Shown here in pieces: positions 3,001 through 6,000 of a stretch of 21,599 nt of DNA; within the stretch, counting starts at the first letter, position 1; the number at the start of each line of letters is the position of its first letter. A program made the position numbers. Location: positions 1 through 21,599 of the forward strand of contig JAZDIV010000121.1 of the NCBI GenBank assembly GCA_043804695.1, given 5' to 3'. The stretch is from PVC group bacterium (GTDB lineage Bacteria; Auribacterota; Erginobacteria; Erginobacterales; Erginobacteraceae).

Positions 3001-6000
3001 AGCAATTGAGAATATGTAGTCCCGATATTTTTCCTATCTTTTTCCGTTTGGGAGTCCCAAGAGGACAAATATCAAATATAGAAATGCAATCGGTTTTATC
3101 TCTGTCTGAAGACAGCAATGCGTTTGGCGATAAGTTGCTGGAGCTATCCAAACAACATCGTCCTGATGGTTCAACTCGGGTAAGTACTACTCTCGAGCGG
3201 ATGGAAGATTACACAGAAAAGGAAATTTCCAAGGAACATATTCCTAACATCCTGCAAGCTCTATTTAATGTGGGGGATCGATTGATAGTCCCGGAAGATG
3301 AAGGAAGGGGTTTTTTCTCGTGGGGTAATGATATGCGCATGGGGAGGCTGACGTTCCGATTATTGAAACGTTATGAAACAAAAGAAGATAGATATATTAA
3401 TCCGACCGTTGTAGGATTTACATCAAGGGTCGCGGTCATTGCGAGCGTTAGCCGAAGCCGCGAGCAAAGCGTGGCGGGAAGCAATCTCTTGCTGTGCATA
3501 GAGTTGAGATTGCGTAGCCTGTCCCGAGCGATAGCGAAGGATCTCGCTCCTCGCAATGACATGTCTATACAATTATGGACTGACTAATAATTAGCGCCGC
3601 AGGCGCTAATGCATGATGCATATATTGAGGAGGTAAAGGACACATGACAACCAGCAGTTATAAAAGCCCTGATCGGCGCCATCGAATTATCCGGCAGACG
3701 CTTCCCCTGATAGTGGTTGCCGCTCTGGCATTGACGGCGGGCTGCTCCAAAAAGCAGCCGCAGCAGGAGATCCCCCCCCGGCCGGTGAAAATCGCCGCGG
3801 CGATTGAGCAGGACATCCCCCTTTACATTGAAAATTTCGGGAACCTGGTCTCTCCCGACGACGTGAATATCGTCTCCCAGGTTACGGGCAAGATCCTGTC
3901 CGTTCATTTTAGGGAAGGAGATGAGGTGAAGAAGGGTGACCCCCTCTTCACCATCGATCCCCGGGAGTATCAGGCCGATCTTGACAAGAGCAAGGCATCC
4001 CTGGAAGCTTCCCGGGTCGACCTGAAGTTAAAGAATGAGACCTTCGAGCGGAACAAGCAGCTGATCGGGAAGAAGCTCATCTCCCAGCAGGATTATGATA
4101 CCTACCAGACTGACGCCGAGGGCGCCCGGGCCCAGGTGGCGCTCGATCAGGCTGCCGTCGAGCTGGCGGAGATCAATCTCGGGTACTGCTCCATCACCTC
4201 CCCGATCAACGGGGCCACCGGGAAGCGGCTGGTCGACCCCGGTAACGTCGTCGCCGCCAACAGCGGCACCGCGCTTGTTAACATAAAGTCGGTCGACCCT
4301 CTCTATGTCGATTTCACCATCCCCGAGAGCCGGTTCTCCTGGGTAAAAGAGGAGATGGCGAAGTCAACCCTGCAGGTCCAGATCTCGCCGGAGGGCGATA
4401 CGGGAGGCCCCTGCGACGGGACGCTGCAGCTGATCGATAATACCGTCGACCCGATGACCGGAACGGTGTCTCTCCGGGCCTCCGTTCCCAACCCGGACCG
4501 GAAGCTCTGGCCGGGGCAGTATGTGACCGTCAGGCTCATCGTCGCCAGCGCCCCGAATGCGGTCCTGGTCCCCGGCGCGGCCGTCCAGCTCGGTCCGAAG
4601 GGGGCGTACCTCTTTGTGGTCAAGGACGATAACACGGCGGAACTGCGGGACGACATCACGGTCGGACTGGCCGAGGAGGACTATGTCCAGATCAAGAAGG
4701 GCGTCAAAGTCGGGGAGAAAGTGGTGACCTACGGTCAGCTGGGCCTCGCCCCCGGCTCCAAAGTGCAGATCGTCGCGGATGATAGCAAGAAAGGGGGTAA
4801 AGAACAAACAACGCCGACATCCAAAAAGGGCGAGGAATGATATTAAAAGACCGGGAATGGGTAAGGGTTACGATGCCCGTTTCGGTTAAGGTAAGGGTAA
4901 CGTGCGTTGTCAAAACATGCGTTGGTGCTTGAGTCTAACGTCATGAACAACCTGAATTTAAGGTTGCTATGATAGGGGCGCGAAAGATAACGAGTTTTCG
5001 GGATCTGGAGGTTTATCGAAATACATATCAGGCTATGCTCCTCGTCATGCGGGAGATTGTCCCGAAGTTGCCGGAGAAGGAAAAATATGATTTAACTGAC
5101 CAATCCAGCCGGGCTTGCAAAGCTATACCGCGGTTAATTGCCGAGGGGTACGCCAAGCGACACCAACGAGCGGGTTTTAAGAAGTATATCGATGATGCCA
5201 TGGCTGAATGCAACGAGATGATAGTCAATTTGTGCCAATGCAGGGATTTGTATGGCAAGTACATAGATACCGATAAATGCGAAACTTTGATCGACACCTA
5301 CGACAAATCAGGCAGACAGCTCTATAAACTAGGCCTGGCCTGGTCAAATTTCAAAATGCAAGGCTAATCATAGAGGCGTGAATCCGTAACCGTAACCGTC
5401 CACCGAAACGGGCTTCGTTACCGTTGCCCTGACCGAATTTAAAATGGCCTTCTCGGAAAAATTTATCCGTCGCCCGATCATGACTATCCTGATCGTGGTG
5501 ACGCTTCTGCTGGGCGGCCTGGTCGCCTATACCCAGCTCCCGGTCAGCGATCTTCCCTCGGTCGATTACCCGGTGATCACCATCACGGCCACCTACCCGG
5601 GTGCCAGCCCGGAACTGATGGCTTCGTCCGTTGCTTCCCCCCTGGAAGACGAGTGCATGCAGATCCCGGGACTCCAGACCATCATCTCGGACAATCAAGC
5701 CGGGATAACGACCATCACCCTCAGTTTTGAACTGGACAAGAACGTTGACCTGGCCGCGCCCGATGTCCAGGCGGCGATCACTCGCGCCCAGGCCAATCTC
5801 CCGACTCTTCCCCAGCCGCCGACCTACGACAAGAACAACCCCGCCGACCAGCCGATCATCTATATCATGGTCGACTCCGAGACCATGACCGGCGGCGACC
5901 TCTATGACTATGCCCACAAGTCGATCGGACAGCGGATCAACATGATCGAGGGGATCTCCAAGGTCGACATCTACGGGGCCAAGCGGGCGATCCGGGTCCT

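Follow-up and report, generated by a model that had tools for sequence, protein, structure and literature searches.

A PF05635 gene in the loop of an inverted-repeat hairpin at an efflux-pump operon junction: a probable selfish element of the rRNA intervening sequence type with gene-less derivatives

The cassette described here is a small gene of the PF05635 family that is enclosed in a long inverted-repeat hairpin and lies between two genes of an RND efflux operon in a PVC group bacterium. It is probably a selfish, horizontally spreading, operon-hitchhiking hairpin element of the rRNA intervening sequence (IVS) type with MITE-like derivatives. The recurrence of a unit of gene and hairpin, together with gene-less copies of the hairpin, marks a little-described kind of mobile element; what is new here is that arms and ORF recur across phyla, with gene-less copies in the foreign genomes. 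PF05635 is named after a rare location of its members, the IVS of rRNA, and we know of no function for the family outside DGRs. A search of the open literature found no description of PF05635 hairpin cassettes outside rRNA, and an earlier one may exist in subscription journals or bioRxiv supplements; in the available passages of PMC8934634 and PMC8700078, the families are only mentioned in passing.

The cassette occupies an early part of the window, the whole stretch of 21,599 nt that was analyzed, and its parts and both neighboring genes are on the forward strand. The upstream host gene (3644..4840) encodes the HlyD-type MFP of the RND efflux operon (HlyD_D23/HlyD_3, Pfam E-value 3.9e-18), and its stop codon lies 11 nt 5' of the base of the stem in the predicted fold. 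The left hairpin arm (4852..4902) consists of GGTAAGG/GGTAACG-like units around a conserved core, ACGATGCCCGTTTCG (4870-4884). A leader (4903..4968) with a short direct repeat, AACGTGCGTTG / AACATGCGTTG, and a Shine-Dalgarno-like AAGG motif at 4960-4963 connects this arm to the ORF; most foreign copies have a shorter one, with a median of 14 nt between arm end and start codon. The ORF (4969..5367, GC 0.46) encodes a four-helix-bundle protein of 132 aa with profile matches to PF05635 and TIGR02436. The right arm (5380..5437) carries the core CGAAACGGGCTTCGT at 5404-5418, and 6 nt separate its end from the start codon of the downstream host gene, which encodes the RND pump (ACR_tran, 5444..8608, Pfam E-value 4.2e-277). 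The GC content is 0.435-0.495 across 4800-5499 vs. 0.57-0.69 in the flanks and 0.578 in the genome, which confirms the survey's finding of a PF05635 ORF in a low-GC stretch between the MFP and pump genes.

The survey had also placed a long inverted repeat around the ORF, and this is equally well supported. The inverted arms 4859-4886 and 5402-5429 are 86% complementary over 28 nt, a second pair is formed by 4881-4902 and 5416-5437, and the MFE and centroid structures predicted for 4841-5443 both contain a terminal stem of 4852-4902 with 5380-5435. The duplex of the two arms (4852-4902 and 5380-5437) has a predicted energy of -69.7 kcal/mol compared with a mean of -40.6 for 200 shuffled versions (sd 4.8, best shuffle -57.0, z -6.1). 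The ORF thus occupies the loop of a long stem built from terminal inverted repeats, as in an IVS. The description of the arms as tandem heptamers applies to the other PF05635 copies in the genome but not to the present arms, in which a conserved, unique 15-nt core is flanked by units of 6-7 nt (GGTAACG/GGTAAGG-like); TRF assigns a period of 6 to the palindrome family. An Rfam search of 4700-5600 at a permissive threshold gave a chance snoRNA match only.

The encoded protein matches PF05635 with an E-value of 4.7e-17 and 62.6 bits (cut-off 33.8) and TIGR02436 with 52 bits (cut-off 24). The profile searches returned these two families only, with no known transposase, nuclease, or recombinase domain, and PADLOC assigned the protein to no family. 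The AF2 model (pLDDT 88) comprises four helices at residues 14-33, 42-62, 69-95, and 101-131. Foldseek relates the model to XCC0516 (2gsc, TM 0.74-0.86), BT_0352 (2rld, TMt up to 0.84), and the DGR protein Avd (4dwl/8ubb, TMt 0.73-0.78). Modeled as four copies, the protein reaches a self-association score of 0.70 against 0.00 for the best of three controls, a mark attained by 20 of 30 proteins solved as one-chain pairs and by 1 of 23 single chains, and likeness to solved related pentamers may explain the score. At least 67% of contacts are shared between runs, the partner pLDDT is at least 81, and the modeled interface uses the invariant residues 54-63 (PRLIAEGYAK). The 2gsc structure contains five chains, one more than the four copies used in the model. 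The subfamily is large, with 2922 homologues in one search, and PF05635 genes occur in 53 of 79 genomes of the phylum with up to 14 copies each.

The fold similarity to 4dwl and 8ubb, together with a weak PHROG match to DGR Avd (E-value 0.0017), could suggest a DGR remnant, in which the reverse transcriptase and template repeat have been lost and the Avd gene is an orphan. We consider this origin very improbable, given that no reverse transcriptase adjoins the ORF in the window, that PADLOC has no match, and that 2gsc and 2rld, the nearest structures, are members from outside DGRs. The sole RVT_1 match in the genome is a truncated, group-II-intron-like fragment of 271 aa on another contig (C23), and a link between the cassette and this unlinked gene was rejected.

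The arms and the ORF constitute one conserved unit across many phyla, and the survey's picture gains strength once it is carried past the order. A related-locus search with the cassette ORF yielded 79 loci with 60-77% amino acid identity in at least 10 phyla; the record titles include Omnitrophota, Desulfobacteraceae, Patescibacteria/Saccharibacteria, Planctomycetota, Nitrospirota, Bacteroidota, Elusimicrobia, Gammaproteobacteria, and others. Of 80 loci, 57 match a profile of the arm on both sides of the ORF (plus orientation upstream, minus orientation downstream), 16 have a single arm, and 7 have none. Complementarity between the flanks exceeds that of all 100 shuffles in 56 of 80 loci, as opposed to 0 of 80 for flanks that were reversed without complementing and 1 of 150 when the windows were displaced by 650 nt. 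This local alignment against shuffles and controls, with the arm profile, replaced duplex folding of 150-nt flanks, for which the shuffled baseline was very high (33 of 80 at z <= -4). The arms are up to 90% identical over 40 nt to those of an Omnitrophota copy. Of 32 foreign genomes, 28 contain exact matches to the 15-nt core, ACGAWGCCCGTWTCG, compared with 0-1 matches for control patterns. Because these 32 genomes were selected visually for having standard arms, one or two core matches are expected by construction; the informative figure is that 21 of the 32 contain more than two matches, and up to 32, with gene-less copies alongside. The arm sequence is conserved beyond what pairing alone needs.

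The ORF itself is open in 77 of 80 loci with automatic boundaries, and the median dN/dS is 0.11 in 51 unsaturated pairs, with a median pN of 0.24 and pS of 0.83 over all pairs. Between the ORF of this genome and its closest relatives, pN is 0.16 and pS exceeds 0.9. The cassette protein is under purifying selection. Since the core has been kept despite saturated synonymous sites, arms and ORF evidently travel, and are selected, as one unit. The upstream neighbor is co-oriented with the ORF in 72 of 79 of these loci and both neighbors in 58 of 74, with median gaps of 81 and 54 nt to the neighbors, and in 54 of 80 loci the duplex is more stable for the sense than for the antisense strand (Wilcoxon p 0.0013); both the co-orientation and the strand statistics overstate significance, as the loci are kin. 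The sense-strand duplexes also show an excess of G.U pairs, which a transcription-linked C-to-T bias could mimic. RNAalifold found 16 core pairs with 0 compensatory changes among 17 gene-less palindromes from 13 genomes, and the selection of these by the exact core makes the test uninformative. As regards vehicles, no phage match and one weak plasmid match (37% identity, an Azospirillum megaplasmid) were obtained, and 0 of 117 PF05635 loci examined showed rRNA similarity.

The cassette is one of several in this genome. In line with the survey, further PF05635 copies are intact on contigs C101, C27, C143, and C83 and interrupted by a stop on C120, each with its own tandem-heptamer inverted flanks, and the class extends to a PDDEXK_3 ORF on C127 (E-value 4e-35) and a GIY-YIG ORF at C27:25968-26255 (E-value 4e-16), with repeat flanks visible at both. 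GxxExxY and GIY-YIG genes may also occur in rRNA IVSs, as the survey stated. Co-orientation with both neighbors, which the survey gave for all intact copies, is shown by Pfam matches at the present cassette (C121) and supported by an open-frame heuristic at C143, C27 (the PF05635 copy), C83, and C127; it is ambiguous at C101 and at the GIY-YIG gene, where antisense shadow frames occur. Complementary flanks are common beyond this genome, as had been claimed: tandem-heptamer flanks that pair with each other are found at 25 of the 29 best PF05635 loci from 29 genomes of the phylum, each with a different heptamer. When five arm heptamers were searched as dimers in five genomes, they gave 9, 24, 312, 54, and 3 matches at home and a single match elsewhere, and the closest pairs of PF05635 proteins have an identical or near-identical heptamer.

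Gene-less, MITE-like copies of the hairpin multiply in genomes that carry the cassette. The two arms are the halves of a palindrome of about 150 bp with 39 whole gene-less copies in this genome; the 41 BLAST loci comprise these 39 and the 2 halves flanking the ORF, which reproduces the earlier count exactly. The exact 15-nt core has 45 matches here vs. 0-3 in each of 40 relatives. One whole copy lies within the window at 13271..13412, between co-oriented ORFs at 12626-13267 and 13437-14681, and the orthologous site in G001, a relative of the same genus, holds a different hairpin made of GCGGATT units. In 16 hairpin loops of 55-420 nt, no decayed ORF remnants were found beyond the known ORFs. 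The copies favor gene 3' ends, with 14 in convergent, 19 in tandem (including the 2 arm halves of the cassette), and 4 in divergent placements and 4 undetermined. A preference of this kind is also that of host-tolerated REP-like elements. G026 contains the ORF with only 2 core matches, and its ORF is not enclosed in a palindrome but has whole palindromes, as direct repeats, on either side. G001 (89% complete) contains at least 11 palindromes of the family, and the cognate ORF was not found in it; the gene-less copies therefore do not strictly depend on a resident ORF.

The palindromes might accordingly be an independent REP/MITE-like family, mobilized otherwise or tolerated at 3' ends, with the ORF inserted or flipped into a resident loop and unrelated to their spread. 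The copies in G001 and the preference for convergent and tandem gene ends would agree with this, as would the slightly closer similarity of the cassette arms to local gene-less copies than to foreign arms (left 56 vs. 48 bits, right 52 vs. 42). Moreover, at the two W positions of the core the cassette is opposite to most foreign ORF-bearing copies (T.T at position 5 vs. A.A in 10 of 11). The genome also has six Y1 (HUH) transposase-like genes, but 0 of these 6 Y1_Tnp genes is near a heptamer array, and a Y1 transposase link was rejected. Such a passenger role of the gene is nevertheless unlikely in our view: across phyla, one ORF subfamily is bracketed by the same arms in 57 of 80 loci, other subfamilies show co-divergence of arms and protein, and the arm heptamers are private to a genome and match the arms of the resident ORF in 5 of 5 genomes tested. 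Repeated independent capture of one ORF by one hairpin in ten phyla would be unparsimonious.

Orthologous sites differ in whether they carry the cassette, and close relatives have it at different sites. The cognate ORF was found in only 3 of 41 genomes (this genome, G000, and G026 and G011), and none of the 13 relatives with both flanking genes has it at the MFP-pump junction, so the presence/absence polymorphism reported by the survey stands as far as the ORF is concerned; a clean insertion site is not seen, and the whole intergenic region differs from that of G001, where the gap is 109 nt and the flanks are 89% identical. In the group of G081, a filled orthologous site is seen in G081 and G120, and a different hairpin is present there in G115, G116, and G119; a cassette with 92% identity is found at a different locus in G111, and a second copy in G081 has 91%. 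Three orthologous comparisons revealed neither a clean empty site nor a target-site duplication, the whole intergenic region being different and often occupied by another hairpin. Allelic replacement by homologous recombination could account for the polymorphism with no need for transposition. Turnover seems to take place in intergenic slots that already hold other hairpins.

The junction bears on whether the hairpin could instead be a domesticated host device, an RNA processing or stability element that tunes MFP against pump, with the protein as a regulator of the host operon. Some hairpin is present at this junction in many relatives, with ORF-less heptamer hairpins in G008, G021, G005, and G002, the MFP stop and the pump start are each 11 nt away from a base of the stem, and the ORF is under purifying selection, all of which would suit such a role. 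The distant relatives G010, G034, and G017, however, need no element, as their two genes are separated by a gap of 2 nt, and the same cassette occurs in unrelated operons of other phyla. A selfish element would better account for the low GC content, the patchy distribution, and the gene-less relatives in multiple copies, and we regard domestication as improbable.

For the selfish hairpin element that we favor, the following mechanism can be proposed. A PF05635 (Avd-like) gene for a protein of about 130 aa, built into the loop of a hairpin with inverted repeats of 45-55 nt and lodged at the MFP-pump junction, would have no promoter of its own and depend on read-through transcription of the MFP gene. 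Once transcribed, the two arms would zip together, so that the MFP gene's end and the pump gene's start meet at the foot of a single stem. By analogy with ORF-bearing 23S IVSs, in which RNase III cuts such a stem, the zipped stem may insulate the insertion. The putatively ring-forming protein may bind the arms of its own element and so keep the family propagating; it is a putative propagation factor because it is the sole component that travels with the arms. A bolder proposal, tentative and doubtful at present, is that PF05635 proteins drive, in a sequence-specific way, the propagation of mobile hairpins that form a new class without transposases. Each subfamily would co-evolve with an arm repeat particular to it (the GCCCG core in the present case, a heptamer in others), act in trans on gene-less copies, and ride host transcripts, and ORF-bearing rRNA IVSs and intergenic tandem-heptamer hairpin families would be two faces of that class.

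As a rule, PF05635 members are packed in a hairpin whose co-traveling arms also occur without the gene in the same genomes. This offers a testable handle on the nature of rRNA IVSs, the origin of intergenic tandem-repeat hairpin families, and the role of stand-alone Avd-like proteins. In practice, the cassettes break metagenome assemblies and split operons in annotation, and they may alter the relative expression of the genes that they separate, here two parts of an efflux pump.

Among known systems, the likeness that the survey saw to the ORF-bearing 23S IVSs of Leptospira and Coxiella burnetii holds up. According to the passages available of PMC4990558, such an IVS has a PF05635/S23p ORF in the loop of a terminal-repeat stem with heptamers adjoining the ORF (in C. 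burnetii, a 28-bp terminal stem and three tandem heptamers before the ATG), and it rides the host transcript in the absence of its own promoter, as the cassette presumably does. The same passages report that the Coxiella ORF is decaying and its protein probably not made, whereas the cassette ORF is under purifying selection, and cite Ralph and McClelland (1993) for the long-standing suspicion that rRNA IVSs are selfish or mobile (PMC4990558). Unlike these IVSs, the cassette lies between protein-coding genes and not in rRNA, has dozens of gene-less copies, and has arms whose sequence is conserved across phyla; excision by RNase III is a feature of IVSs that is only predicted for the cassette. 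A transposon with MITE derivatives likewise has terminal inverted repeats around one gene and dispersed gene-less copies consisting of the arms only, the same in foreign genomes, with presence/absence polymorphism and horizontal spread. In contrast, the cassette is without a transposase-like domain, its three site comparisons gave no target-site duplication or clean empty site, and its arms are made of tandem 6-7-nt units that are wholly different between subfamilies.

In the REPtrons of the REP/RAYT system, an HUH Y1 transposase gene is flanked by inverted palindromic repeats that are dispersed between genes, mostly at gene 3' ends. The cassette gene similarly lies between inverted copies of a dispersed palindrome that is found mostly at gene 3' ends, but it encodes a four-helix bundle, and the six Y1_Tnp genes of the genome are not linked to the arrays. 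DGR Avd has the same fold and belongs to the same Pfam-level family, and, as the titles of 4dwl and 8ubb indicate, is a ring oligomer on structured RNA with a reverse transcriptase; the cassette is without a reverse transcriptase, template repeat, or variable repeat. Lastly, the STRR of heterocystous cyanobacteria are intergenic tandem heptamer arrays of several sequence families, for which we know of no link to PF05635 genes. Intergenic tandem heptamer arrays are likewise a feature of this genome, in which 306 strong arrays of period 7 were counted vs. 7 of period 5 and 12 of period 10.

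The HlyD-type membrane-fusion gene (MFP, 3644-4840, + strand) and the AcrB-type pump gene (5444-8608, + strand) of an efflux operon, both assigned by Pfam, are separated by a spacer of 603 nt that contains a single ORF of 132 aa (4969-5367, + strand) and has a GC content of 0.44-0.50 vs 0.57-0.69 on either side. The ORF is a true member of PF05635, which it matches with 62.6 bits against a cut-off of 33.8, and it also matches TIGR02436, "four helix bundle protein". The outermost ~50 nt at both ends of the spacer are inverted repeats. When the whole spacer is folded, the minimum-energy structure and the centroid structure are each closed by the stem 4852-4902/5380-5435, and the arm flanks alone pair with -69.7 kcal/mol compared to -40.6 ± 4.8 kcal/mol for 200 shuffles, the best of which reached -57.0. 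At its base, the stem is 11 nt away from both the stop codon of the MFP gene upstream and the start codon of the pump gene downstream. The ORF, the left arm (4852-4902), and the right arm (5380-5437) are together referred to here as the cassette.

The arms belong to a repeat family of the genome under study (G000). A BLAST search of its 2.97-Mb assembly with a representative palindrome detected 41 loci, consisting of 39 whole palindromes (94-177 bp, loop ~19 nt) and the two halves around ORF 4969-5367, a count identical to that of the survey's finding. The arms are made up of GGTAACG/GGTAAGG-like units flanking a unique core, ACGAWGCCCGTWTCG, which occurs 45 times in G000 (control pattern, 0) and 0-3 times in each of 40 relatives. 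One whole palindrome without an ORF, that is, a gene-less copy, was located by BLAST in the window at 13271-13412. The 41 loci lie mostly at gene 3' ends, given that convergent (14) and tandem (19, including both arm halves of the cassette) contexts dominate over divergent (4) and undetermined (4) ones. The two W positions, which lie 7 nt from each other in the core (e.g., 4874/4881 and 5407/5414 in the window), are mostly mismatched across the stem as A.A or T.T, the first in 7/10 and the second in 10/10 gene-less copies of G000, and in 10/11 and 9/11 ORF-bearing copies of foreign genomes, respectively. The foreign ORF-bearing copies mostly have A.A on the ORF sense strand; the cassette in the window has T.T at the first W position and a paired second one, as though left and right arm had been exchanged with respect to the ORF.

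Arms and ORF also occur as one unit across phyla. There are 2922 homologues of the ORF at E ≤ 1e-5, and the best are 70-82% identical, with the exception of a shorter match of 94% over 80% of the query. Contigs from one genome per species yielded 79 loci with proteins 60-77% identical to the ORF product, which by record title come from Omnitrophota, Desulfobacteraceae, Saccharibacteria and other Patescibacteria, Planctomycetota (Brocadia, Scalindua), Nitrospirota, Bacteroidota, Ignavibacteria, Elusimicrobia, WOR-3, Cloacimonadota, Marinimicrobia, and Gammaproteobacteria. Reading of the flanks showed that most related loci carry the same arms, ...GGTAACGAAGCCCGTATCGGTTAAGGTAACG... upstream and ...CGAAACGGGCATCGTAACC... 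downstream, with a median of 14 nt from the end of the left arm to the start codon and the right arm starting at the stop codon. Flank complementarity exceeded all 100 shuffles in 56/80 loci, compared to 0/80 for reversed but not complemented flanks and 1/150 for windows shifted by 650 nt. An arm profile was matched in (+) orientation upstream and in (-) orientation downstream in 57/80 loci, by one arm in 16, and by none in 7, several of which have, by eye, arms in a different "dialect" such as AGGAAGCCGGTATGG with CCAAACTGGCCTCCT. The exact core was present in 28 of the 32 foreign genomes searched; these had been chosen by eye for standard arms, so that 1-2 occurrences are expected by construction, and 21 of the 32 contain more than two, with a maximum of 32. 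The foreign occurrences are typically +/- pairs ~65 nt apart, that is, gene-less copies, and some pairs ~445 nt apart are additional ORF-bearing copies. Gene-less copies accompany the cassette, but the link is not strict. Among 41 genomes around G000, a homologue with at least 60% identity (cognate ORF) was found only in G000, G026, and G011; none was found in the congeneric G001 (89% complete) despite at least 11 palindromes of the family, and G026 has the cognate ORF yet no burst of gene-less copies. The G026 ORF (71% identical; its contig C127:13440-14140, locus L112) lies between two direct whole-palindrome copies and not inside one palindrome.

Comparison of orthologous sites bears on the mobility of these elements. 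The ORF is absent at the MFP-pump junction in 13/13 relatives having both flanking genes; the gap is 2-260 nt in 12 of them, and in the 13th, where the automatic stop call failed, the 309-nt gap reads as coding. The tight junction looks ancestral, judging by the 2-nt gap in the distant relatives G010, G034, and G017. Several family members have other, ORF-less repeat hairpins at the junction, for example CGTATTG/CGATACG in G021 and GGGCAGT arrays in G008. Between G000 and G001, homology breaks off in the MFP tail and sets in again precisely at the pump ATG; the spacer differs over its whole length, and no duplication was found at the spacer ends in this comparison. At the site of the gene-less copy 13271-13412, G001 has a GCGGATT-unit hairpin instead. 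Likewise, the site of a related cassette in G081 is occupied in G081 and G120 and holds a GACGCAGAT-unit hairpin in G115, G116, and G119, while a 92% identical cassette is found at a different locus in G111 and a second G081 copy at 91%. These comparisons indicate that cassette elements clearly move and duplicate, and that their turnover occurs in slots already used by other hairpins, which may reflect either transposition into hairpins or allelic replacement by recombination. The orthologous site in G111 (C152:6340-7880, L177) contains ~1.5 kb of GC-rich, repeat-laden sequence ending in the arm type of the short hairpin of G115, G116, and G119, a family that may also carry large loops. A small hairpin, CTATTTTTTTCC-AAA-GGAAAAAAATA, stands directly before the pump ATG at the relatives' junction (L002, L004-L009) and is conserved in G001, G002, G003, G005, G006, G007, and G008; G000 does not have it, and the right arm of the cassette takes its place.

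Neutral non-coding DNA is expected to be randomised once synonymous sites are saturated, and here they are, with a median pS of 0.83 and pS >0.9 for G000 vs its nearest relatives. The reading frame is open in 77/80 ORFs under automatic boundaries, pN has a median of 0.24, and the 51 unsaturated pairs give a dN/dS of 0.11, which indicates that the PF05635 protein is maintained by selection. The left arm is still 90% identical to an Omnitrophota copy over 40 nt. Since arm and core identity persists despite saturated synonymous sites, the arms are conserved in sequence, beyond pairing. The ORF is the sole component that travels with the arms across phyla, and from these two observations we infer that the protein recognises the arms.

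The association extends to PF05635 in general, which was found in 53/79 genomes of the phylum, at up to 14 copies each. Complementary tandem-heptamer flanks, with a different heptamer each time, were found at 25/29 best PF05635 loci (one per genome, 29 genomes). Five arm heptamers, searched as dimers in five genomes, gave 9, 24, 312, 54, and 3 matches in their own genome and one in total outside the genome whose PF05635 gene carries the heptamer. Protein pairs at 99%, 84%, and 76% identity have a common arm unit or units 1-2 bases different, a pair at 69% has units one base apart, and below ~65% the units differ; the PF05635 protein and its arms, by this measure, diverge together. All six small PF05635 genes of G000, including a broken one, are bracketed by inverted repeat-unit flanks, whose units are dispersed elsewhere (AATCAGT at 21 loci, AATCCTA 25, GTGTAAA 7, GAATGAC 6, GGGGAAT 4), as is the CTTGGTG+N unit bracketing its PDDEXK_3 gene (35 loci). 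Strong period-7 arrays number 306 in G000, vs 7 for period 5 and 12 for period 10, and there are 52 inverted heptamer pairs, 40 with a loop <150 nt.

Further arrays occur in the window, where the gene string 10818-14681 has a repeat element in nearly every gap and more arrays follow at 14713-14765. The space from ORF 11789-12532 to ORF 12626-13267 is taken up by a one-sided tandem array (12535-12599) of ~9 ACTGATT-type heptamers, the unit that also brackets the PF05635 gene of contig C27, and this ~65-nt stretch matches dozens of places in G001, G004, G005, G006, and G007. Octamer arrays of CACCAAGA / TCTTAGTG, the unit bracketing the PDDEXK_3 (GxxExxY) gene on C127 of G000, are located at 10623-10646 and at 11656-11739, the latter as an inverted pair in the gap from ORF 10818-11618 to ORF 11789-12532. 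Elsewhere in G000, an AbiEii-family toxin gene (Pfam E 2e-34; C105:1861-3070, L152) is enclosed by two inverted heptamer arrays, the loop being 1166 nt long and of low GC (0.47); this may point to a further type of cargo or be coincidental. Partial PF05635 matches at C11:22636-22848 and C33:13853-14059, within longer open frames (239 and 275 aa) of normal GC and without heptamer flanks, may be a fused or domesticated form.

AlphaFold, run with 35 homologues, predicts the ORF product to be a four-helix bundle with high confidence (pLDDT 88). Among solved structures, XCC0516 (2gsc, five chains) and BT_0352 (2rld) are the closest, followed by the DGR accessory protein Avd (4dwl, 8ubb), and the PHROG Avd profile is weakly matched. 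A four-copy self-association model scored 0.70 (best of three controls, 0.00) and thereby passed the mark set for self-association, which may reflect no more than likeness to the solved related pentamers; the mark was reached by 20/30 proteins solved as one-chain pairs and by 1/23 solved as single chains. At least 67% of contacts agree between runs, partner pLDDT is at least 81, and the modelled interface places the invariant stretch 54-63 (PRLIAEGYAK) against residues 78-90.

In 72/79 loci the ORF runs in the same direction as the upstream gene, and in 58/74 in that of both neighbours, with gaps of 81 and 54 nt; orientations were assigned by a longest-open-frame heuristic, at loci that are not independent of one another. 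Co-orientation and short gaps fit a dependence of the ORF on read-through transcription from the upstream host gene. In 54/80 loci, the duplex formed by the sense strand is more stable than its antisense counterpart, and G.U-type pairs number 537 vs 415. This hints at a role of the stem in the transcript, but a bias in mutation could produce the same pattern. By analogy with the Coxiella 23S rRNA intervening sequence (IVS), the arm stem would be an RNase III site insulating or releasing the insert.

In the literature searched, which comprised sources other than closed supplements and subscription journals, we found no account of PF05635 hairpin cassettes located between protein-coding genes, of their gene-less hairpin families, or of cross-phylum arm conservation. 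In PMC4990558, the Coxiella IVS is described as a 428-nt insert in helix 45 whose terminal stem spans 28 bp; its loop holds an S23p ORF, three GACAGAT repeats stand ahead of the ATG, and RNase III excises the IVS in vitro. The G000 23S rRNA gene (3069 nt vs a 2925-position model) has in its helix-45 region, the classical IVS site (C48:36231-36268, L110), a 20-bp hairpin with four tandem 9-mers (GAACNGTTT) and no ORF. No nuclease, transposase, or defence-system profile was matched by the cassette ORF in profile searches. The single reverse transcriptase of G000 is truncated, of group-II-intron type, and unlinked to the cassette, and none of its six Y1 transposase-like genes is associated with heptamer arrays. 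In its architecture, the cassette resembles a transposon with MITEs or a REP/RAYT pair, but it lacks the transposase of the former and the HUH enzyme of the latter. It may work like an ORF-bearing rRNA IVS; unlike an IVS, it lies outside rRNA (0/117 PF05635 loci in rRNA), and the old idea of the IVS as a mobile element becomes testable on thousands of loci.
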